The position numbers and the translations under genes are program-made. Shown here one piece after another: positions 4,112-38,063 of a stretch of DNA of 43,551 nt (within the stretch, counting starts at the first letter, position 1; each line of letters begins with the position of its first letter). The DNA comes from a virus (lineage: Duplodnaviria > Heunggongvirae > Uroviricota > Caudoviricetes). The stretch lies in the IMG/VR virus record IMGVR_UViG_2718217869_000004; one strand, given 5' to 3'. Below the pieces are notes generated by a model that worked only from the letters and a program-made list of their open reading frames with translations, was not told the DNA's origin and did not search any database.

Positions 4112-5450
4112 CATAAGCGCTAACTTAAGGGTTGTGGTATTACGCCTGATATGATTTAACGTGCCGATGAATTACTCTCACGATAACTGGTCAGCAATTC
4201 TGGCCCATATTGGTAAGCCCGAAGAACTGGATACTTCGGCACGTAATGCCGGGGCTCTAACCCGCCGCCGCGAAATTCGTGATGCTGCAACTCTGCTACG
4301 TCTGGGGCTGGCTTACGGCCCCGGGGGGATGTCATTACGTGAAGTCACTGCATGGGCTCAGCTCCATGACGTTGCAACATTATCTGACGTGGCTCTCCTG
4401 AAGCGGCTGCGGAATGCCGCCGACTGGTTTGGCATACTTGCCGCACAAACACTTGCTGTACGCGCCGCAGTTACGGGTTGTACAAGCGGAAAGAGATTGC
4501 GTCTTGTCGATGGAACAGCAATCAGTGCGCCCGGGGGCGGCAGCGCTGAATGGCGACTACATATGGGATATGATCCTCATACCTGTCAGTTCACTGATTT
4601 TGAGCTAACCGACAGCAGAGACGCTGAACGGCTGGACCGATTTGCGCAAACGGCAGACGAGATACGCATTGCTGACCGGGGATTCGGTTCGCGTCCCGAA
4701 TGTATCCGCTCACTTGCTTTTGGAGAAGCTGATTATATCGTCCGGGTTCACTGGCGAGGATTGCGCTGGTTAACTGCAGAAGGAATGCGCTTTGACATGA
4801 TGGGTTTTCTGCGCGGGCTGGATTGCGGTAAGAACGGTGAAACCACTGTAATGATAGGCAATTCAGGTAATAAAAAAGCCGGAGCTCCCTTTCCGGCACG
4901 TCTCATTGCCGTATCACTTCCTCCCGAAAAAGCATTAATCAGTAAAACCCGACTGCTCAGCGAGAATCGTCGAAAAGGACGAGTAGTTCAGGCGGAAACG
5001 CTGGAAGCAGCGGGCCATGTGCTATTGCTAACATCATTACCGGAAGATGAATATTCAGCAGAGCAAGTGGCTGATTGTTACCGTCTGCGATGGCAAATTG
5101 AACTGGCTTTTAAGCGGCTCAAAAGTTTGCTGCACCTGGATGCTTTGCGTGCAAAGGAACCTGAACTCGCGAAAGCGTGGATATTTGCTAATCTACTCGC
5201 CGCATTTTTAATTGACGACATAATCCAGCCATCGCTGGATTTCCCCCCCAGAAGTGCCGGATCCGAAAAGAAGAACTAACTCGTTGTGGAGAATAACAAA
5301 AATGGTCATCTGGAGCTTACAGGTGGCCATTCGTGGGACAGTATCCCTGACAGCCTACAAAACGCAATTGAAGAACGCGAGGCATCGTCTTAACGAGGCA
5401 CCGAGGCGTCGCATTCTTCAGATGGTTCAACCCTTAAGTTAGCGCTTATG
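4112..5450 (+). mobile_element. IS186 (IS4 family), 1339 bp, with 23-bp terminal inverted repeats and 10-bp target duplication
   Basis: Ends CATAAGCGCTAACTTAAGGGTTG ... CAACCCTTAAGTTAGCGCTTATG; flanking direct repeat GGATACGCCC at 4102-4111 and 5451-5460. Confidence 0.9.
4167..5279 (+). CDS. IS186 transposase (370 aa)
   Basis: Translation MNYSHDNWSAILAHIGKPEELDTSARNAGAL... matches the IS186 transposase; lies between the IRs. Confidence 0.9.
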   Translation: MNYSHDNWSAILAHIGKPEELDTSARNAGALTRRREIRDAATLLRLGLAYGPGGMSLREVTAWAQLHDVATLSDVALLKRLRNAADWFGILAAQTLAVRAAVTGCTSGKRLRLVDGTAISAPGGGSAEWRLHMGYDPHTCQFTDFELTDSRDAERLDRFAQTADEIRIADRGFGSRPECIRSLAFGEADYIVRVHWRGLRWLTAEGMRFDMMGFLRGLDCGKNGETTVMIGNSGNKKAGAPFPARLIAVSLPPEKALISKTRLLSENRRKGRVVQAETLEAAGHVLLLTSLPEDEYSAEQVADCYRLRWQIELAFKRLKSLLHLDALRAKEPELAKAWIFANLLAAFLIDDIIQPSLDFPPRSAGSEKKN

Positions 5451-5936
5451 GGATACGCCCCCGGTTGGTGGGATAAACCGCCGCTCATTAATGCACGGTC
5501 TGAAACTGCTGCCACCAGCAGAATGTTTAAACCACTCTGGCAGCATGGCCGCGCAATTTGCTTTGCTGATGGATGGTATGAGTGGAAAAAGGAAGGCGAC
5601 CAAAAACAACCCTACTTTATTCACCGGGCAGACGGTCAGCCGATTTTTATGGCGGCGATCGGCAGCACACCATTCGAACGTGGAGATGAAGCAGAAGGTT
5701 TCCTGATAGTTACAGCTGCAGCTGACAAAGGACTGGTTGATATTCACGACAGACGACCACTGGTACTGCTACCGGAAGCCGCGCGTGAATGGATGAGGCA
5801 GGATGTTGGAGGGAAAGAAGCAGCGGAAATTGCAGCCGACGGTGTTGTACCGGCTGATAAATTTATATGGCACGCCGTAACGCGTGCCGTCGGGAATGTG
5901 AAAAATCAGGGCGCCGAACTAATAACGCCAATATGA

Positions 5937-6358
<422 letters not shown>

Positions 6359-6360
6359 GG

Positions 6361-6603
6361 CTAAAGTCCTCCGTTTGGATTGAACAGCTGAAAGGTTCGG
6401 TTCTCGCCTTCCTGCGTTGATACATCGCGGAATGTTGTCACATAACATTCTATCCAATCGTTGGCCTGCTTCATCGTCCAGTGCCAGTTAACCTTACCCA
6501 GTTCCTGGACAAACCGCTGTGTGGTGACAGTCTTCCGGCCATTCGGTTCTCGCTGTATCGAAGCATGCCAGGCTATTTCAATATCGCTACGTTGTGGCAT
6601 CAT
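6361..6603 (-). CDS. Hypothetical small protein (about 80 aa) immediately upstream of and translationally coupled to the UmuD-like gene; possibly ImpC-like
   Basis: ORF MMPQRSDIEIAWHASIQREPNGRK...; its stop is 2 nt from the UmuD-like ATG; LexA box 40 bp upstream; start codon choice uncertain. Confidence 0.5.
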   Translation of the reverse strand: MMPQRSDIEIAWHASIQREPNGRKTVTTQRFVQELGKVNWHWTMKQANDWIECYVTTFRDVSTQEGENRTFQLFNPNGGL

Positions 6604-6642
6604 TAACCCCTTCTTGAACACTGGATAAAAAAACAGCATAAG

Positions 6643-6662
6643 CACTGTGTATCCATCCAGTA
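6643..6662. promoter_or_regulatory. LexA (SOS) box between divergent dinI-like and small-ORF/umuD-like units
   Basis: cACTGTgtatccatcCAGTa fits CTG-N10-CAG consensus TACTGT(AT)4ACAGTA; 16 bp upstream of the dinI-like start. Confidence 0.65.
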
Positions 6663-6677
6663 AAGAGGCAATAAGCA

Positions 6678-6920
6678 ATGTTCGTGGAACTCGTTTATGA
6701 CAAAAGGAATTTTGATGGCCTGCCCGGTGCAAAAGATATCATTCTGGGCGAATTGACTAAGAGGGTTCACCGGGTCTTCCCTGATGCTGATGTCCGGGTA
6801 AAACCGATGATGACACTGCCGGCGATCAACACTGACGCCAGCAAGCATGAGAAGGAACAGATAAGCCGTACTGTTCAGGAAATGTTTGAAAAGGCTGATA
6901 TGTGGCTGGTTTCAGATTAA
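6678..6920 (+). CDS. dinI: DinI family protein (DNA damage-inducible protein I homologue, 80 aa)
   Basis: Size and C-terminal ...QISRTVQEMFEKADMWLVSD resemble DinI (...QRISEILQETWESADDWFVSE); AGAGG RBS; LexA box upstream. Confidence 0.8.
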   Translation: MFVELVYDKRNFDGLPGAKDIILGELTKRVHRVFPDADVRVKPMMTLPAINTDASKHEKEQISRTVQEMFEKADMWLVSD

Positions 6921-7048: not shown

Positions 7049-7600
7049 TCAACGCCGCGCAGGAAATTTTTTGTATAGCGTCGACACCCCTACATCATAA
7101 ATTATAGCCACACGTTTTCTAGACTCACCTGCAGCAATCAACCTTCCAGCCTGAGCCCACTCTTCTGCGGTTAACTTTGGTCGTCTGCCGCCGATCCGAC
7201 CATCTTCGCGCGCAGCAGCTAAGCCAGCCCGTGTTCGCTTAACAATAAGCTCTCTTTCCATCTCGGCAAGCGCCCCCATGACATGAAAGAAAAAGCGCCC
7301 CATTGGTGTTGAGGTATCTATACTGTCGGTCAGGCTACGGAAGTTTACCCCTCGCTCCCTCATTTCTTCGACCAGCACGACAAGATGCCGCATGCTGCGA
7401 CCGAGGCGATCCAGCTTCCAGACAACCAGAGTGTCACCTTCCGATAATGTCCTGAGCAGTTTTTTCAATCCCGGCCTTTCGGACTTTGTACCGCTTATCT
7501 TGTCTTCAAAAATCAGCTCGCATCCTGCACAGTTCAGCGCATTACGTTGTAGATCTGTGTTCTGGTCATTTGTTGACACACGTACATAGCCAATAAGCAT
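7049..7600 (-). CDS. pin: Pin/Gin-family DNA invertase (serine recombinase)
   Basis: MLIGYVRVSTNDQNTDLQRNAL...VVWKLDRLGRSM...HTH tail; typical resolvase/invertase motifs; next to the invertible tail-fibre segment. Confidence 0.9.
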   Translation of the reverse strand: MLIGYVRVSTNDQNTDLQRNALNCAGCELIFEDKISGTKSERPGLKKLLRTLSEGDTLVVWKLDRLGRSMRHLVVLVEEMRERGVNFRSLTDSIDTSTPMGRFFFHVMGALAEMERELIVKRTRAGLAAAREDGRIGGRRPKLTAEEWAQAGRLIAAGESRKRVAIIYDVGVSTLYKKFPARR

Positions 7601-7654
7601 GGTAGATCTCCCTGACAAAAGCAGGGATGATGCCATTTGCTCGTTATTTCTGCA

Positions 7655-7680
7655 TTTTCATAAATGTTGGTTTGGGAGAA
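7655..7680. other. Inversion crossover site 1 (gix/pix-like 26-bp site)
   Basis: TTTTCATAAATGTTGGTTTGGGAGAA; reverse complement shares half-site TCTCCCAAACC-AA with site 2 and resembles gix TTATCCAAAACC. Confidence 0.65.
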
Positions 7681-8169
7681 GGCTCTGCATTACCTGTTGG
7701 TGTCCCTGTTCCGTGGCCCTCAGCCACTCCGCCAACAGGCTGGCTAAAATGCAACGGAGCAGCTTTTTCTGCTGAAGAATATCCGGAACTGGCAAAGGCT
7801 TACCCGACAAATAAATTGCCTGATTTACGCGGTGAATTTATCCGTGGCTGGGATGACGGGCGTGGTATTGATGCTGTACGTGCCTTGCTAAGTCTTCAGA
7901 ATGGAGGAGTGGAATCACACACCCACCAAGGGCAGCTCTTCAGAGTTAGTGATTATCGTACAAAAGAAATACCAGCATCAGAAGTTATGGGAAGAGGATA
8001 TATTGCAAGCCTGACGCCGGGTGCTGATAGCCCACTTGATTTTGATGATTATTCTGTATCTTCTAATCCAAATGGATATTTTGTCGGGAATCAGAGAACA
8101 ACAGCATATGGGATAAATGAAACCCGTCCACGGAATATTGCATTTAACTATATCGTGAGGGCTGCATAA
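7669..8169 (+). CDS. Alternative tail-fibre C-terminal variable segment (silent in current orientation)
   Basis: ORF ...GAAFSAEEYPELAKAYPTNKLPDLRGEFIRGWDDGRGID... typical fibre tip; frame at the crossover site matches the constant fibre N-terminus after inversion. Confidence 0.7.
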   Translation, partial: GLGEGSALPVGVPVPWPSATPPTGWLKCNGAAFSAEEYPELAKAYPTNKLPDLRGEFIRGWDDGRGIDAVRALLSLQNGGVESHTHQGQLFRVSDYRTKEIPASEVMGRGYIASLTPGADSPLDFDDYSVSSNPNGYFVGNQRTTAYGINETRPRNIAFNYIVRAA

Positions 8170-31584: not shown

Positions 31585-32580
31585 TTACGCCAGCACGCCA
31601 ATTGCCAGCGCACGATCAATAAAACGAAATATCAGCTCCAACTGGGAGCCATACTTCTCTTCAAATACCACGGTATCCGCATGCAGCTCGTCGTGATGCT
31701 TTCTGCACAAAGGCAACACAAAAAGGTCATGCGCTTTTGTACCCATTCCACCCTGACCGTGACCTATCAGGTGGTGGGCATCATCAGCAGGCTTTCCACA
31801 ACATGCGCACGGCTGCGTCTTAACCCAGCGCGTGTACTTTTCATTAACCCAGCGGCGACGTTTTGGGCGTAACATAAAAGACTCCGGCGACTCCGGATCC
31901 ACTTTCAGCGCCAGCACCTTTTTCGCTTTATCCTGGATGATGCTGGTGGAAGGAACCGAAGGCACAAGGTCACTTTCCCGGGTGACAGATGGCACAACAG
32001 GCTTCGGTAATCTCAGTGCCTTACGGGCTGCACTTTCCGGTAAGGCATCCGCCAGGTCATTACGAACCAGCCACCAGCACAGTTCCGGCATTGTCACAAC
32101 GTGACTATCATTAAAACCGAGATCCCGACGCACGACAGATAACACCCACCGGGCACAGTTATCCGTTGCCATTGATTCCAGCCGTTCCGTGAACTGATCG
32201 CGCAGCTGGTTATCACAGTGCCAGCACAGACGGATTGCGCCCGGCGCGTGTCGCATTGTGGTCATGTTCTCGCTGTGCCAGTCGGAATGAGGCCACTGGC
32301 AGCCTTTTTCACGAAGTAACCAGCTTTCAAGACATTCCACCCCACCAGCACGACGAATCACTGCCTCATTACGGAACACGGCCCGAACGACAGGATCATC
32401 CGCCAGCGGTTGTGATGCCGCGGGAACGGCACCACTGGCGAAAGATGAATAATGCTCCGGCTCAGGCTCCAGCAGGACACGCCCCTGCATAAACAGGGGC
32501 ATCAGCTCTGAACCTGGTCTGAACAATACGATCCCCATACGCGGGGCAATTTCAGGGGTCAGTAGTGCTCTCACGGTCAC
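31585..32580 (-). CDS. DUF968-like phage protein with C-terminal His/Cys-rich nuclease-like motif
   Basis: ...CACCGKPADDAHHLIGHGQGGMGTKAHDLFVLPLCRKHHDELH... Confidence 0.7.
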   Translation of the reverse strand: MTVRALLTPEIAPRMGIVLFRPGSELMPLFMQGRVLLEPEPEHYSSFASGAVPAASQPLADDPVVRAVFRNEAVIRRAGGVECLESWLLREKGCQWPHSDWHSENMTTMRHAPGAIRLCWHCDNQLRDQFTERLESMATDNCARWVLSVVRRDLGFNDSHVVTMPELCWWLVRNDLADALPESAARKALRLPKPVVPSVTRESDLVPSVPSTSIIQDKAKKVLALKVDPESPESFMLRPKRRRWVNEKYTRWVKTQPCACCGKPADDAHHLIGHGQGGMGTKAHDLFVLPLCRKHHDELHADTVVFEEKYGSQLELIFRFIDRALAIGVLA

Positions 32581-32581
32581 C

Positions 32582-33424
32582 TCAATGAACGGTATCGAGC
32601 AGCTTTAACAGCTCAGGGAATCGGGATTCGAAAAAGTGCGGCTGCGTCTCGCGCGGATTTGCGGGACTGGTGATGTTCTTGCCGAACATGCAGCCTTTCG
32701 CTGTCAGCGACCAGAATTTTTTGATGTTGTTAATCGCGGTACGGCTGTATCGTTCGCGCTGTTCGACGATCCCCAGCTTCACCATCTGGTGATATGCCTG
32801 ATTAGCCGTAAGGCGGATACCATACTGCTTCAGCAGTGCACTCAATGATAGCGTAGGGCGGCTTGAGCCATCGAGTGCATCAGCAGGAGCATCAATGGCA
32901 TAGCGCGGTGCCAGATTCGGTAAGCCAACAGCCTCCTGGAGTTTCTGACAGGCACCAAGCACAGATGAGTTAGACAGGTTTAACTCCCGACGCATAAAGT
33001 CCAGCAGAATCACACCAGCCTGCATCTTGTCAGCAGCCTGTCCGGATAATTTTTCCGGTGCGCTGGTTACCATGTCGAAAGTACGGATCACCTTCAGATG
33101 GAATGACGGGCTGATCCACATTGCATAGGCATACACCAGTTCCTTGCAGACATAAGTTCCCCGTTCATTTCCCCCATGAATCACACTCACCGGGTCAACA
33201 CCCAAATTCTGGGTGTTGGTCAATTCATGAACGAGTTCAACAGTTTGTTGGCTGGAAAGAAACTTTCCTGGCTCCTTGGTTCTGGCATTTGCACCAGATG
33301 CTACTGCTGCGCGATGCAGATCGTTCAGGCTGTAACGCCCATAAGCATCACGACGAACTTCAATACCATCAATGACCATCAGATTATTCATACTTCGTTT
33401 CTCCTCTTGATCAGGCGGCTGCAC
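32582..33424 (-). CDS. KilA-N domain protein (antirepressor-like); alternative start at 33391
   Basis: N-terminal MNNLMVIDGIEVRRDAYGRYSLNDLHRA...GTYVCKELVYAYAMWISP resembles the KilA-N DNA-binding domain. Confidence 0.7.
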   Translation of the reverse strand: MQPPDQEEKRSMNNLMVIDGIEVRRDAYGRYSLNDLHRAAVASGANARTKEPGKFLSSQQTVELVHELTNTQNLGVDPVSVIHGGNERGTYVCKELVYAYAMWISPSFHLKVIRTFDMVTSAPEKLSGQAADKMQAGVILLDFMRRELNLSNSSVLGACQKLQEAVGLPNLAPRYAIDAPADALDGSSRPTLSLSALLKQYGIRLTANQAYHQMVKLGIVEQRERYSRTAINNIKKFWSLTAKGCMFGKNITSPANPRETQPHFFESRFPELLKLLDTVH

Positions 33425-33800
33425 CCGCCGTTTTCTCGTACTTACTGATAGTGATCTCGACCTTCCCTTCCGGGATAACCGGTCCCCACTCCACCAGCAT
33501 TCTTTTCACCTGGCTGTCGTCTTCCCACACACCCGCGTGGGTCAGGGCGTCAAACAGTGCCTTGTTATAGTTGTCCAGATCGCGGATCCGGTTATCCGGA
33601 GGAAACAACACAATCTCCACTGAAGCAGGTGCCGACGTTGGTTTCGGCAGACGACGTAACTGCTCAACTATTGCTGCGCACGCCGCGCTCTGGAATTTTC
33701 GCCCCGCCGCACTTATCAGGCTCTTACCAGCAAATGCCCCTTTGTTGGGGTGTCGCCAGTAGGTGTTCACGCTGGGTGGAAAAGGCAGAATCAGCTTCAT
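33411..33800 (-). CDS. rusA: RusA Holliday-junction resolvase
   Basis: MKLILPFPPSVNTYWRH...DLDNYNKALFDALTHAGVWEDDSQV... matches RusA motifs. Confidence 0.85.
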   Translation of the reverse strand: MKLILPFPPSVNTYWRHPNKGAFAGKSLISAAGRKFQSAACAAIVEQLRRLPKPTSAPASVEIVLFPPDNRIRDLDNYNKALFDALTHAGVWEDDSQVKRMLVEWGPVIPEGKVEITISKYEKTAGAAA

Positions 33801-34123
33801 ACTTTCAGCCCCCTCTCATGTAACCAGTGGGTTGCACGCAGCCTGGCGTTTTCCTCACCGGCAAGCAGTGAGCGGATAATCCCGACCGCCTCGCTGTCGT
33901 CATCCTTCACCGCGGTATGAAGCGTGATGCCCCGGGCCACGCCACGCTTTATCGTGATGACGCCTTTTTTCTCCAGTGCGCGAAGATGCTCCACCGCTGC
34001 ATTCACTGAACGGTATCCCAGCATGGTTGCCACCTCCTGATTGGTTGGCGGGAAGCCACGTTCTTTCTGATAAGAAATCAGCATATCCAGCACCTGCTGC
34101 TGGCATTGAGTTAACGTCGTCAT
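33797..34123 (-). CDS. LexA-like N-terminal winged-helix DNA-binding domain protein (no peptidase domain)
   Basis: ...QQQVLDMLISYQKERGFPPTNQEVATMLGYRSVNAAVEHLRALEKKGVITI... parallels LexA residues 1-70; ORF ends after about 108 aa. Confidence 0.7.
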   Translation of the reverse strand: MTTLTQCQQQVLDMLISYQKERGFPPTNQEVATMLGYRSVNAAVEHLRALEKKGVITIKRGVARGITLHTAVKDDDSEAVGIIRSLLAGEENARLRATHWLHERGLKV

Positions 34124-34773
34124 GCCGCCATCTCCCTGACCAGTTTTTCTGCCTGCTGGCGAACCTGCGCCAGAAAGGCCTCACCACATGCCTCAAGTTC
34201 ATCGCGCCCGATGTAGCTGATTGCCGGTCCCTTCCAGGTCTTGTCGAAAACAGCAATAGCACCAGCGAAGAAAGCGCCTGTCGGCACCTGCTTCTCATCC
34301 TTCGGGATAAACCAGGCAGGCAGTTCAAAACCAATACGCCCGCGAATAAAAGCAATATGATCTGCATCTTCCGGCCACCACACTTCGCTGGTGGCAACTT
34401 TGATCAGGAAAACATAGCGCCCACCTTTATCACGCATGGCACTGGCATGCTTCATGATGTAACGCATGCCTGTGATGTATTGCCCCTCATGCTGACTGGC
34501 GCGGCTGTATGGGGGATTACCAAAGGCAGCACCTTTAAGCTCCGCAAGACGTTCTGACCAGTCATGCGCCAGCGCGTTGTCTTCCGCCGTGTAATACGCG
34601 GCACATTTGGCGTTACCACCGTCGGTGAACAGATCCAGAACAAACGGGCCAAACAGGGTGTTAATTCCCCAGAAAATGTTGTCCGGCGTGCGCCACTGAT
34701 CGCCCACTTCCTTCAGTTCATGGGCTGGTTTGTTCCGCAGCTCCACCAGCGCCTGGCAATATTTATTACTCAT
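34120..34773 (-). CDS. Phage N6-adenine DNA methyltransferase (Dam-like)
   Basis: GNPPY catalytic motif (...AAFGNPPYSRA...); start coupled (TAATG) to the upstream gene stop. Confidence 0.8.
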   Translation of the reverse strand: MSNKYCQALVELRNKPAHELKEVGDQWRTPDNIFWGINTLFGPFVLDLFTDGGNAKCAAYYTAEDNALAHDWSERLAELKGAAFGNPPYSRASQHEGQYITGMRYIMKHASAMRDKGGRYVFLIKVATSEVWWPEDADHIAFIRGRIGFELPAWFIPKDEKQVPTGAFFAGAIAVFDKTWKGPAISYIGRDELEACGEAFLAQVRQQAEKLVREMAA

Positions 34774-35267
34774 TAAGCCCCCACGTAATTCCCTGACAGA
34801 TACCACTCTTCACCCGATGCAGCGCGCTTGCTGCTTTTCCGTAAGCACCGCTCACGACGCGCCAGAAAATTGTTTCGTTCTGGCTGGGAGTGGCTTTCAC
34901 GGAATGCCGCCATCCACACGGTTGCAGCACGACGAAATAAGCCCCTGGACTCCAGTTCTTCCGCCTGGCGGGCCAGGTACAAAATCACCCGCGGGTCGTT
35001 AGTGCCGACATAGAAATTGCGCACAGGTCTGGTTTCACGAACTGGTTGCCGTTCCGCCTCCGGCGATATCTTTGTCTGGCGCGGGAAATGTCTGCGTGTA
35101 TCCCCTTCACAACGGTGAGCCACACGCCCACTCTGACGTAACTTGCTTGCTGACTGCAGAACGCGCTGCCGTGAGTAACCTGCAAAAGCATCCGCAATGT
35201 CACCGGAAGTACACCCCGGATGGGCTTCAATGAATTTCTGAACGTCATTTAACAGACTCATGATCAC
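34773..35267 (-). CDS. Hypothetical phage protein (YfdN-like, 164 aa)
   Basis: ORF between the replication gene and the methylase; Arg-rich C-terminus. Confidence 0.55.
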   Translation of the reverse strand: MIMSLLNDVQKFIEAHPGCTSGDIADAFAGYSRQRVLQSASKLRQSGRVAHRCEGDTRRHFPRQTKISPEAERQPVRETRPVRNFYVGTNDPRVILYLARQAEELESRGLFRRAATVWMAAFRESHSQPERNNFLARRERCLRKSSKRAASGEEWYLSGNYVGA

Positions 35268-36205
35268 CCCCTGAATCCTGCCGGGATCTGGCTGTAGTCC
35301 ACGTTGTCGTAACTGGCTTTGAAGTACGGGTCCTCGCGTTTTTCGGTGTACGTACTTACGGACGGCGATAAGCGCAGGGAAAGCTCATCCCATTTTTCCC
35401 GCAGCTTCGACGGGCTGAGCACGTTACGGCACCAGAACGGATCGCGGCTGACGCGGCTGTACATCTCGCAGATTTGTTTGTGAGTACGACCATCCTGCAC
35501 ACACATCAGGCGAATTTCGTTTGCCCAGGCTGTCCAGTTCGGTTCTTTGGGACGAACCACCTCGCCGTCACATTCGGCAGCCTGCTCGTACAGGGCGATG
35601 ATTTTTTTCCAGAGCCACTGTGCGCAGGTCAAATCATCCTGCGTTCCCCACTGGCGCTTTTTAGGGCTGAATACAACAGCATCAGGATGGCGAGTTAAAA
35701 ACTCCTGTTCAGCCGTCTGCGTGTCCGGTTGCGAAGCGTCCGGACGAGAAGTTTTTTTATCTGACGGATCATGTTTTGATTTTACTGACGGATCCCCGCC
35801 AGATTCTGACGGGTGAAAACCCGCTTTTTTGCCAGATTTCGACGCATCAAATTTTGACGGGGCAGATTTTGATGCGTCAGATTTTGACGGGTCAGAATCT
35901 GACAGTTGAGAAAATGCCGCTGCCTGAAGCTTCGCAACGTTAAGCTGATAAACATTCGACGCATTGCGGTTACCCTGGCGACGCGCCTTACGCGTTAACC
36001 AGCCTTCTGCTTCCAGCCGTGCGATAGCCGTTCTGACGGTACTCATCCCCGCGCCAATCTGGCGGGCAATGGTTTCAATTGATGGCCAGCACACACCTTC
36101 GTCATTACTGAAATCAGCCAGGCGGGCCATAATTGCCACGCTGGATAACTTCATGCCTGACGCAGCGCAACCATCCCATACATAGCCGGTTAATTTAGTG
36201 CTCAT
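35264..36205 (-). CDS. Replication initiator protein (N-terminal HTH, O-like) containing the iteron array
   Basis: N-terminal ...CWPSIETIARQIGAGMSTVRTAIARLEAEGWLT wHTH; central low-complexity SKSDASKS region encoded by iterons. Confidence 0.75.
   Translation of the reverse strand: MSTKLTGYVWDGCAASGMKLSSVAIMARLADFSNDEGVCWPSIETIARQIGAGMSTVRTAIARLEAEGWLTRKARRQGNRNASNVYQLNVAKLQAAAFSQLSDSDPSKSDASKSAPSKFDASKSGKKAGFHPSESGGDPSVKSKHDPSDKKTSRPDASQPDTQTAEQEFLTRHPDAVVFSPKKRQWGTQDDLTCAQWLWKKIIALYEQAAECDGEVVRPKEPNWTAWANEIRLMCVQDGRTHKQICEMYSRVSRDPFWCRNVLSPSKLREKWDELSLRLSPSVSTYTEKREDPYFKASYDNVDYSQIPAGFRG
35755..35909. repeat. Iteron array (about 8 copies of a 15-bp AGATTTTGACGGgTC-like unit): putative origin of replication inside the initiator gene
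   Basis: Direct read of tandem imperfect repeats ttttactgacggatc / agattctgacgggtg / aaattttgacggggc / agattttgatgcgtc / agattttgacgggtc / agaatctgacagttg. Confidence 0.7.
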
Positions 36206-36214
36206 GACCGACCT

Positions 36215-36553
36215 CTATTTCCCTGAATTTACGACGAAACTGTTCGAGCGGGCTGAAGCACTCATGCTCATAGCCTTCGCGGAGGTAGATAACCCGTTGT
36301 GTTTCCGGCTCCCAACGAATGACTCTGACGGGCACTCCGTAGTGATCTTTGAACCAGCGGTTAACTTGTCGCAAAGGACTGTCTCCTTCTGCCGGTTGAA
36401 ATCACCCACAGCCCACTCTGCAAAGCTGTGGGTTACAATTTCCCTGTCACCTGGTACATTTACTGCATAGCAATACTCCACCTTCGCTTTTCCACCCGGT
36501 ACAGGAAGCGCAATCAGTTGCGAGCGACGGTAGTGTGTTGTTAAACTGTTCAT
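36215..36553 (-). CDS. Hypothetical protein; C-terminal half looks low-complexity and a plus-strand ORF overlaps, so the call is uncertain
   Basis: Minus-strand ORF in a minus-strand operon context. Confidence 0.3.
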
Positions 36554-37158
36554 GCGTTAGTTTCTCCACAGTCACGACACGCCACGGCGCCCGGAGCTGC
36601 ACACTCGCGGGCGTCATTACTTTCTGAAATGCAAAAAATTTTGTAGACCAGTGCTGCATGCTCCTGCAGCTTCGAAATTGAGAGGTACAGCTCGTCGTTA
36701 ATTGCTGTCTTCTCATGCGGTTCCACTACACCGTCTTCAATTGCTGAACGAATCTGTTTTGAATAACTGCCGATCTGTTCAATGACTTCCAGCAGGCGCT
36801 GGTTAATATCGGCGTTGTCCACATCCTCGACGTCAGGAAGAGACACAAAGACGCCATTTGCAGACTGCGCCACAGCGTCAGCAATGAAGTGAGTTCCACC
36901 AGCACGTTGCAAAATCATTGCCCATCCCAGCGGGAAAATCTGATCGCCATCGGCACGAAGGCGGTTAAATAATGCGTTCTCTGTTACATCCAGCCAGTCA
37001 GCTGCTTCAGCGTAACCACCCGGCAACTTTGCGATAGTTTTTCTGACAGCTTTCACGTACCACTCAGGCTGTTTTTCTACTTTCCAGTGATGCTTACCCA
37101 CGGTTAGCCTCATCGTTCTGTGGTTTCTGTTAATCGATTTATCCATTAGATTTTTCAT
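36550..37158 (-). CDS. Phage regulatory protein, CII-like
   Basis: Position immediately downstream of cro-like gene; family call from memory, start codon uncertain (37146 or 37158). Confidence 0.5.
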
Positions 37159-37339
37159 AAAGCTCAGGTTTAAATGGCAACCGTCCGCAAGTTCTATATG
37201 CAGCTTCTGCTGCACGTCCTTTTGGAATTAACTGGCCCGGACGGTTTCGCCACTGATAAACGGCTTCAGTTGTTATGCCGAAAAAAGCAGCAACTTTCTC
37301 AATACTGCCGAAGTAGCTTTCGATATCGTCAGTTGTCAT
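37139..37339 (-). CDS. cro: Cro-like HTH regulator
   Basis: 66 aa, ...GSIEKVAAFFGITTEAVYQWRNR... HTH; divergent from the CI-like repressor. Confidence 0.75.
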   Translation of the reverse strand: MTTDDIESYFGSIEKVAAFFGITTEAVYQWRNRPGQLIPKGRAAEAAYRTCGRLPFKPELYEKSNG

Positions 37340-37436
37340 ACGCCCTCCAAACTAAGTTTTATTAGATGCTAATTACAAATCTATCTTTGGTCAATAAAAA
37401 CTAAGATTACTTAGTAATTAAAGAAATGGTGCTCCT
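37340..37436. promoter_or_regulatory. Divergent immunity promoter/operator region (between cro-like and cI-like genes)
   Basis: AT-rich 97 bp with repeated ACTAAG half-sites: ACTAAGattaCTTAGT palindrome at 37400-37415 and actaagttttattagat at 37351-37367. Confidence 0.6.
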
Positions 37437-38063
37437 ATGGAAACGGTTGGTCAGCGTATAAAAGCTCTGAGAAGAGTTACCAGAACGTCCCAGAAAGAAT
37501 TGGGTAAATTTTGTGGAGTAAGCGACGTTGCTGTGGGGTACTGGGAGAAAGACATCAATACCCCTGGTGGGGAGGCACTTTCGAAATTAGCGAAGTTCTT
37601 CAATACGTCAATAGATTACATTCTTTATGGTGCTGAGTTTGAAGGCAAACTCGTCACAAACATGCGCAGAGTTCCTGTAATATCGTGGGTTCAGGCTGGG
37701 CAGTTTACTGAGTGCAGGGCAGCAGAAGTGTTTAGTGAAGTGGACAAGTGGGTAGATACATCATTAAAGATTGGTGATAACTCATTTGCATTAGAGGTTA
37801 AAGGTGACTCCATGACTAACCCTAATGGCCTCCCAACAATACCAGAAGGCGCAACAGTGATTGTAGATCCAGATGCAGAACCTCGTCATGGAAAAATAGT
37901 CATCGCTCGACTTGATGGAACAAACGAAGCTACAGTAAAAAAATTAGTCATCGATGGCCCTCAAAAGTTTTTAGTGCCATTAAATCCTCGGTATCCCAAC
38001 ATCCCTATCAATGGTAATTGCCTTATCATTGGTGTAGTCAAAGGAGTTCAATACGAACTCTAA
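37437..38063 (+). CDS. cI: CI-like repressor (HTH plus S24 LexA-type autopeptidase domain)
   Basis: N-terminal HTH (...SQKELGKFCGVSDVAVGYWEK...), C-terminal ...GDSMTNPNG...KIVIARLDGTNEATVKKL with Ser/Lys dyad. Confidence 0.9.
   Translation: METVGQRIKALRRVTRTSQKELGKFCGVSDVAVGYWEKDINTPGGEALSKLAKFFNTSIDYILYGAEFEGKLVTNMRRVPVISWVQAGQFTECRAAEVFSEVDKWVDTSLKIGDNSFALEVKGDSMTNPNGLPTIPEGATVIVDPDAEPRHGKIVIARLDGTNEATVKKLVIDGPQKFLVPLNPRYPNIPINGNCLIIGVVKGVQYEL

Follow-up and report, generated by a model that had tools for sequence, protein, structure and literature searches.

A peptidase-free LexA homologue in the early operon of a lambdoid prophage and its possible place in SOS control

The DNA-binding domain of LexA represses only weakly on its own and needs an added dimerisation module, a property exploited in LexA-based two-hybrid systems. 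Both the LexA autocleavage fragment (residues 1–84) and the non-cleavable LexA(Ind-) mutants retain operator binding and would act as RecA-insensitive repressors; the natural N-terminal fragment, a monomer, is a weak binder that ClpXP clears via its newly exposed C-terminus. Here we consider a phage gene of related design, found in IMG/VR virus record IMGVR_UViG_2718217869_000004, a 43,551-nucleotide sequence from the Caudoviricetes (hereafter the window, meaning this whole stretch of DNA), which is a lambdoid, SfV-like prophage. The gene encodes a 108-amino acid protein, termed mini-LexA in this work, in which a LexA-type DNA-binding domain is followed by a short helical tail.

A truncated LexA has been described in another phage by Fornelos et al. 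(2018, PMC6182141), namely gp6 of the Bacillus thuringiensis tectivirus GIL01, which is 44% identical to the host LexA's DNA-binding domain. This protein binds its own palindrome, GaCACAnnTGTGaC, activates the late promoter, and is encoded in an early operon that is LexA-repressed and SOS-controlled (PMC6182141). The enterobacterial mini-LexA, in turn, is known as an annotation and is not new as an object. Phage records label it ‘LexA DNA binding domain protein’, ‘LexA-like protein’ or ‘transcriptional repressor’, its PGAP name in E. coli is ‘LexA family transcriptional regulator’, and a survey of Shiga toxin (Stx) phages gives it merely as a pham (PMC8136144). No functional study of the enterobacterial family was found in the full-text literature, and mini-LexA is thus an uncharacterised phage-encoded truncated LexA homologue.

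A LexA DNA-binding domain with its own tail

The gene and the parts of its product are as follows.

33797..34123, minus strand: mini-LexA gene (LexA DNA-binding domain only, 108 amino acids; open reading frame with ATG start; PF01726; PHROG 362)
33920..34123, minus strand: LexA-type winged helix-turn-helix, codons 1–68 (Pfam, structure matches, AlphaFold model, BLASTP)
33899..33919, minus strand: acidic low-confidence linker, codons 69–75, aligned to the LexA hinge (model confidence, alignment)
33800..33898, minus strand: conserved two-helix tail, codons 76–108 (model, family alignments)

The original prediction, made from the sequence alone, had matched the 108-amino acid open reading frame at 33797–34123 to the LexA N-terminal winged helix and had proposed alignment to models of that domain as a check. 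This match is borne out, and not as that of a generic winged helix: residues 1–65 cover the whole PF01726 LexA_DNA_bind profile (positions 1–65 of 65; E 2.9e-19; score 69 bits, where 23.7 is the cutoff), E. coli LexA aligns with 43% identity over 90 amino acids (BLASTP, E 8e-22), and the solved structures nearest by sequence are all LexA (1lea, 1jhh and 3jso; E about 1e-15). The AlphaFold model, with a mean predicted local distance difference test score (pLDDT) of 79.7, places helices at residues 6–22, 28–35 and 40–52 and a beta hairpin at 56–59/65–68, and superimposes on the LexA–DNA crystal structure 3JSO with a root-mean-square deviation of 1.3 Å at about 50% identity over 68 residues. These matches support the derivation of mini-LexA specifically from LexA rather than from winged-helix proteins in general. 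A weak PADLOC likeness to a CARF model, confined to the winged helix (E 3.6e-4), was dismissed as generic.

The same prediction held that the open reading frame ends without an S24 autopeptidase and that its product would be non-cleavable, and both points stand. A Pfam search of the whole 108-amino acid protein gave no match to PF00717 (Peptidase_S24), and the TIGR00498 lexA equivalog is matched over positions 1–91 of 203 only, at 70.8 bits and so under its cutoff of 110.95; mini-LexA therefore falls outside LexA proper both on score and on the missing S24 Ser/Lys dyad. Nor is there an S24 remnant 3′ of the gene, where rusA begins at the mini-LexA stop codon. Because it has neither the S24 domain nor the Ser–Lys active site, mini-LexA is shown by its domain content to be structurally incapable of self-cleavage, including that stimulated by activated RecA (RecA*).

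After the winged helix, residues 71–75 of the linker have pLDDT below 50, and confidence recovers to about 88 in the two modelled tail helices (75–87 and 93–103), before the protein ends in GLKV. The tail motif IIRALLAGEENARLRAxHWLHERG is kept in members from Escherichia, Salmonella, Citrobacter and Hafnia, and the two helices are still recognisable in relatives only 41–52% identical to mini-LexA; the tail is a feature that defines the family and not read-through junk. We infer that it stands in for the S24 domain as a dimerisation element, because the isolated LexA DNA-binding domain is a weak operator binder as long as it is not dimerised. A different arrangement was observed in several representative proteins (P0132, P0133, P0149, P0152 and others), which carry tandem LexA DNA-binding domains in one chain, also without S24; this is another route to a dimer-like, non-cleavable LexA.

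One segment of the tail was considered as a possible cleavage site. In both the HMMER and BLASTP alignments LexA Ala84-Gly85-Glu86 pairs with Ala88-Gly89-Glu90 of mini-LexA, but Ala88-Gly89 is probably not a cleavage site: the pair is not conserved in the family (Ala-Asn in Citrobacter variants, replaced by further residues in distant members), and the model confidently shows a helix for the segment. A second BLAST segment, pairing AVGIIRS with LexA 192–198, was dismissed as chance (E 0.37).

The residues through which LexA contacts DNA are Ser39, Asn41, Ala42, Glu44 and Glu45 (PMC3091678). Mini-LexA keeps four of the five, namely Ser39, Asn41, Ala42 and Glu45, and has Val at position 44, its recognition helix reading RSVNAAVEHL against RSPNAAEEHL in LexA. 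The clade to which the window belongs thus looks competent, on its retained contacts, for a CTGT-like half-site.

Mini-LexA is a member of PHROG 362, a phage ‘transcriptional repressor’ group (residues 1–108 on profile positions 1–106 of 106; E 1.1e-59), and it belongs to a family which we define as proteins of about 105–135 amino acids, with a LexA DNA-binding domain and the two-helix tail, encoded just upstream of rusA, DUF968 or an antiterminator gene. Of 61 matching phage records, 50 encode a protein 95–100% identical to it, among them SfV, SfII, SfIV, cdtI, mEp460, several Stx2c and Stx2a phages, SKA5 and Kati; identity is complete in SKA5, Kati and Stx2c phages, and extends over residues 1–107 in mEp460. 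Among 5426 complete E. coli genomes, 2232 carry its DNA, at up to four copies per genome. A contig scan with a narrower family alignment recovered almost only host lexA genes and one true member, from Buttiauxella. The ratio of non-synonymous to synonymous substitution rates (dN/dS) is 0.12–0.19 against distant relatives, for which dS is saturated, and 33 alleles differ at 238 synonymous versus 13 non-synonymous codons, in a set picked by protein identity and hence biased. By these measures the open reading frame is a real gene under purifying selection.

Operon setting, SOS boxes and relatives

The features around the gene that bear on its expression are listed below.

34120..34806, minus strand: Dam-type N6-adenine methyltransferase gene, upstream (PF05869, E 1.1e-44; PADLOC MTase_II)
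33411..33800, minus strand: rusA Holliday-junction resolvase gene, downstream (PF05866)
37366..37394, minus strand: PR-like sigma-70 promoter TTGACC-17-TAGCAT, opposite cI (sequence scan)
37437..38063, plus strand: prophage cI repressor gene, HTH_3 and Peptidase_S24 (domain matches)

The TGA stop of dam overlaps the ATG of mini-LexA (ATGA, 34120–34123), whose own TGA overlaps the ATG of rusA (ATGA, 33797–33800). Read along the minus strand, the early-right operon runs from the PR-like promoter through cII-like, O-like replication, PerC-like and dam genes to mini-LexA, and then through rusA, a KilA-N gene and DUF968 to a Q-like antiterminator gene, with the genes overlapping or abutting from 37215 down to 31585. 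Mini-LexA is placed in this operon because of the ATGA overlaps on both sides and because no promoter-like minus-strand site was seen between the PR-like promoter and the mini-LexA gene. The PR-like promoter would then be the source of its transcript, and mini-LexA most probably belongs to the delayed-early class, its product appearing after induction or infection. The prophage itself is predicted to be RecA-inducible because its cI carries a Peptidase_S24 domain.

The upstream neighbour shows a variation of its own. The dam gene is present in the window and cleanly absent in some relatives, e.g. at locus L001 8511–8544 and L055 9831–9864, and the leader MVSVRELRGGLM opens the following open reading frame in both arrangements, with or without dam, which indicates a cassette-like insertion or deletion of dam at a shared translation-initiation region.

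Sites for LexA were sought with an approximate weight matrix, derived from about 26 known SOS boxes of E. coli. The original prediction had named an SOS box at 6643–6662, and this site proved real, at 19.9 bits, with a tandem twin at 6619–6638 which scores 21.1 bits (training median 19.9). The third-best site in the window reaches 8.3 bits and the best of 50 shuffles 16.4. The window has no other strong LexA site, and the two boxes, which lie 24 bp apart between centres, are candidate targets of mini-LexA. A perfect CTGT-N8-ACAG is absent from the window, the box at 6643–6662 included, and the 20-mer SOS consensus with up to three mismatches has no match there. An excess of CTG-N10-CAG (26 against 10.5 expected) was discounted, as CTG and CAG are favoured codons which dinucleotide shuffles do not preserve.

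6619..6662, no strand: two tandem SOS boxes, CACTGGATAAAAAAACAGCA at 6619–6638 and CACTGTGTATCCATCCAGTA at 6643–6662 (matrix scan; divergent promoter region)
6678..6920, plus strand: dinI-like gene directly 3′ of the SOS boxes (PF06183, E 1.6e-20)
6361..6606, minus strand: 81-amino acid open reading frame, divergent from the dinI-like gene and followed by a umuD-like gene

Together, 6361–6920 reads as an SOS-regulated moron cluster at the prophage end. Several other observations were made near this end of the window. The umuD-like gene (5937–6457, minus strand) contains a perfect (GCTG)11 repeat at 6250–6293, has its frame split into open reading frames at 6176–6457 and 5937–6236, and gives a weak S24 match; possibly it is a pseudogene made by a frameshift, or its expression is phase-variable. 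An insertion sequence (IS) transposase gene (DDE_Tnp_1, 4161–5279) adjoins an SRAP/YedK-like open reading frame (5448–5936) that is without the first 60 or so profile positions and was probably truncated by the IS. Further along, a Hin/Gin-type serine invertase gene (7049–7636, minus strand) abuts a tail-collar/tail-fibre gene (7627–8169, plus strand), suggesting, by analogy with Mu or P1, a host-range segment at 7049–8169 that can invert.

Eleven diverged lineages of relatives were examined, and in 10 of them mini-LexA lies just upstream of rusA, or of a 66-amino acid open reading frame and rusA; the exception, L173, has mini-LexA and a 67-amino acid open reading frame with no rusA. Downstream of rusA there is sometimes a KilA-N or Rha/ANT gene, then DUF968 and the antiterminator gene, and upstream of mini-LexA there are usually DNA methyltransferases or PerC. 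The window has no equivalent of the small open reading frames which flank mini-LexA in the distant relatives.

In the four most distant lineages (L091, L092, L173 and L174), a near-perfect SOS box of 20–27 bits heads the gene cluster that contains mini-LexA.

L091, 3560: SOS box ACCTGTACATTCATACAGTA, 20.4 bits
L092, 3561: SOS box TACTGTTTATATATACAGTG, 27.1 bits
L173, 513: SOS box TACTGTTTATTTATACAGTA, 27.3 bits
L174, 3242: SOS box TACTGTATAAAAATACAGTT, 26.1 bits
L174, 3258: second, overlapping SOS box, 17.3 bits

The box and promoter regions of these clusters extend over L091 3507–3580, L092 3476–3580, L173 487–532 and L174 3242–3277. Read by eye, a promoter-like -35/-10 pair lies at or just before the box in L091, L092 and L173; a promoter scan tool flagged such a pair in L091 only and none in L092. 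The first gene of the SOS-box unit is a DinI homologue in L173 (E 2.6e-25) and encodes a 95-amino acid RecA_C-domain protein in L174 (E 9e-10). The clusters share a conserved 75-amino acid open reading frame, mini-LexA, the 66-amino acid open reading frame (not in L092), rusA (not in L173) and DUF968. By gene order the string reaches a Q-type antiterminator in L091, L092 and L173, and in L174 it reaches DUF968 and an unannotated open reading frame. Late-gene control in these distant relatives would be wired directly to host LexA. L091 and L092 also have a terminator-like hairpin ahead of the promoter.

In the E. coli clade, strong SOS boxes near mini-LexA fall in the gap between rusA and KilA-N, one gene downstream of mini-LexA (5 loci), at the 5′ end of the methylase gene (25 loci) and inside one cI allele (21 loci). 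The first of these, TACTGTATTTATGAACAGTG, occupies L055 10628–10647 and recurs in L051, L054 and L074; it is missing from the window, and suggests that the KilA-N antirepressor-like gene is under LexA control in L055-type loci. The second, T/CACTGTAAAAATAAACAGTG, is found at the start of an N6/N4 DNA methyltransferase gene or shortly ahead of it (L002 15000–15019, L092 6739–6758) in the 25 E. coli-type loci and one distant relative, and suggests that the phage methylase is regulated by LexA. The third, TACTGTTTTTACATACAGTA (near-perfect, 25.3 bits; L001 5586–5605, and about 20 related loci too), is within the linker between the helix-turn-helix and S24 domains of the cI allele, and may be either a coincidence or a sign of intragenic LexA control. 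Overall, 61 hits to strong SOS boxes, of 10 distinct kinds, were found in 1.254 Mb around mini-LexA, against 12 hits to 3 distinct boxes in an equal length around lambda-type ninG, no ninG locus carrying mini-LexA; this density, about five times higher around mini-LexA, is no more than suggestive, given a single control set and related loci.

Across 80 viral loci, mini-LexA is inherited together with the DUF968-to-cII block (about 31600–37200 in the window), which is nearly without non-coding DNA, and it assorts independently of both the immunity region and the Q module. A private operator travelling with mini-LexA is hard to place because this block has almost no non-coding DNA, and a search of the block for alternative operators, as CTGT/ACAG half-sites at spacings of 0–14 and as perfect palindromes, gave nothing above chance. 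An operator specific to one phage module is thus unlikely, and a generic target is favoured by these patterns of inheritance.

Possible roles of mini-LexA

The reading we prefer, tentatively and at somewhat less than an even chance, is that mini-LexA is a RecA-insensitive stand-in for LexA, which re-imposes or re-times repression at SOS-box promoters after host LexA has been cleaved. In its favour are the gene neighbourhoods with an SOS theme, the contact residues that mini-LexA retains and the fact that no private operator was found. Following induction or infection, mini-LexA would be made from the PR delayed-early transcript, its translation coupled to that of dam on one side and of rusA on the other. 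Its tail would provide dimerisation, and the dimer would bind CTGT-type, SOS-like operators, replacing the destroyed host LexA in a manner indifferent to RecA. Its targets would be phage promoters, e.g. the dinI-like/umuD-like divergent promoter at 6619–6662, and possibly host SOS genes. In a broader form, which we consider doubtful, a RecA-proof mini-LexA, present in the prophages of about 40% of E. coli genomes, would occupy SOS boxes while the phage develops and so silence the LexA regulon or alter its timing, in the host as well as at SOS-box genes of its own and rival prophages, forming with DinI-like and RecA_C-like proteins a phage ‘SOS control’ toolkit, and in the distant relatives it would exert negative feedback on the SOS-box promoter that also drives Q. 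Of the two roles offered in the original prediction, the occupancy of LexA boxes is plausible; the antirepressor-type role has nothing in its favour, and the antirepressor-like gene here is the KilA-N gene two genes downstream.

A number of observations weigh against mini-LexA acting at SOS boxes. Glu44 is replaced in every family member seen, LexA Arg28 is Asn in mini-LexA, and the recognition helices of the family vary widely (NAAVEH, NSAVEH, NTIAGH, NAATDM, NGAFEH, NAAAEH, NAVLLH, YAAYEH and NTVFIH), whereas the LexA-type sequences retrieved keep NAAEE or NAAED. The SOS boxes beside divergent relatives nevertheless stay canonical, which suggests that these boxes are there for host LexA and that specificity may have diversified among the phage proteins; to judge from these helices, the mini-LexA family taken together is not tied to the SOS box. 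In addition, 38 of the 80 carrier loci have no box within the available sequence, the dinI/SOS-box moron of the window is not co-inherited with the mini-LexA gene (three partial phage matches only), and GIL01 gp6 binds a palindrome other than that of host LexA despite 44% identity in the DNA-binding domain.

These points lead to the alternative that mini-LexA is a phage-specific regulator in the manner of gp6, i.e. a domain captured from lexA which has drifted to its own operator and which, by activating or repressing a phage promoter, times expression after SOS-triggered induction. We regard this as possible but doubtful. The GIL01 precedent, with its palindrome GaCACAnnTGTGaC and late-promoter activation, speaks for it, as do the four distant lineages L091, L092, L173 and L174, in which the same logic is seen where an SOS-box promoter drives a truncated LexA along with a Q antiterminator, and the family-wide loss of Glu44 and variable recognition helix beside invariant boxes are typical of diversifying specificity. 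It lacks, however, a candidate operator, the co-inherited block having essentially no intergenic DNA and its half-sites at other spacings and perfect palindromes being no commoner than chance; mini-LexA also assorts independently of Q, immunity and late modules, a Q-type antiterminator already serves late transcription in these phages, and the window clade keeps its four LexA contacts. The steady neighbours of the gene raise a separate idea, that mini-LexA is no transcription factor but a DNA-binding accessory of recombination or replication functions (RusA, the DUF968 HNH-like protein, methyltransferases). Adjacency to rusA in 10 of 11 lineages, with DUF968 after and methyltransferases often before, would fit this idea, as would translational coupling to rusA in the window, but the gene order of the lambdoid nin region is conserved whatever the functional coupling, many RusA phages have no mini-LexA gene, L173 has mini-LexA without rusA, and a LexA-type recognition helix among SOS-themed neighbours favours regulation; we consider it improbable.

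Still less probable, and in our view very unlikely, is a decoy or pseudo-substrate role, in which LLAGE, through its resemblance to the LexA cleavage site VAA-GE, would occupy the active site of LexA, CI or UmuD, or occupy RecA*, or be cleaved in trans. Although the alignments run through LexA Ala84-Gly85-Glu86 and the TIGR00498 match reaches position 91, the Ala-Gly pair varies between members, the segment forms a confident helix and no extended loop, and a second alignment of this segment, to LexA 192–198, is just as weak, which implies that the similarity is not significant. That mini-LexA resembles a lexA truncation might finally be taken to mean a decaying remnant of a captured lexA, or a spurious, functionless open reading frame. 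Against this stand the low dN/dS, the 238 synonymous versus 13 non-synonymous differences (33 alleles, in the biased set), the conservation of length, tail and position down to 41% identity, and carriage by 2232 of 5426 E. coli genomes, and by these data the remnant explanation is effectively refuted.

The carriers of mini-LexA include Shiga-toxin phages and Shigella serotype-converting phages, for which the protein exists as a name at annotation level only. If uncleavable occupancy of SOS boxes is true, prophages could mute or reshape the host DNA-damage response, which governs mutagenesis, persistence, Stx and colicin release, and the induction of co-resident prophages, with consequences for antibiotic responses and prophage competition. 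If mini-LexA has a private operator instead, it would be a second independent case, after GIL01 gp6, of a captured LexA domain repurposed by a phage. The observation of the gene is in itself ordinary, and its potential interest rests on its prevalence and on the association with SOS boxes, DinI and RecA_C in relatives.

Comparison with known systems

Mini-LexA and E. coli LexA (1LEA, 1JHH, 3JSO) share a homologous winged helix, the residues Ser39, Asn41, Ala42 and Glu45, and the RG wing motif. They differ in that mini-LexA is without the S24 dimerisation and peptidase domain and its Ser119/Lys156, having a 33-residue helical tail instead, and in that its gene belongs to a phage early operon whereas host lexA is autoregulated. 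Within PHROG 362, mini-LexA is typical of the proteins of lambdoid phages (SfV, SfII, SfIV, cdtI, mEp460, Stx2c), which share the same context of dam or PerC, then the gene, then rusA.

Like GIL01 gp6, mini-LexA is phage-encoded, consists of a LexA DNA-binding domain without the peptidase, and has a similar level of identity to host LexA; unlike mini-LexA, gp6 has 66 amino acids and no helical tail, and phage GIL01 has neither CI nor Q. BLASTP gave no alignment between the two at E values up to 100, and because there is no detectable similarity we take them, on this comparison, to be independent captures of the same kind of object. Compared with the LexA 1–84 fragment, mini-LexA is roughly its genetically encoded equivalent, but with a GLKV end and a tail that may restore dimerisation.

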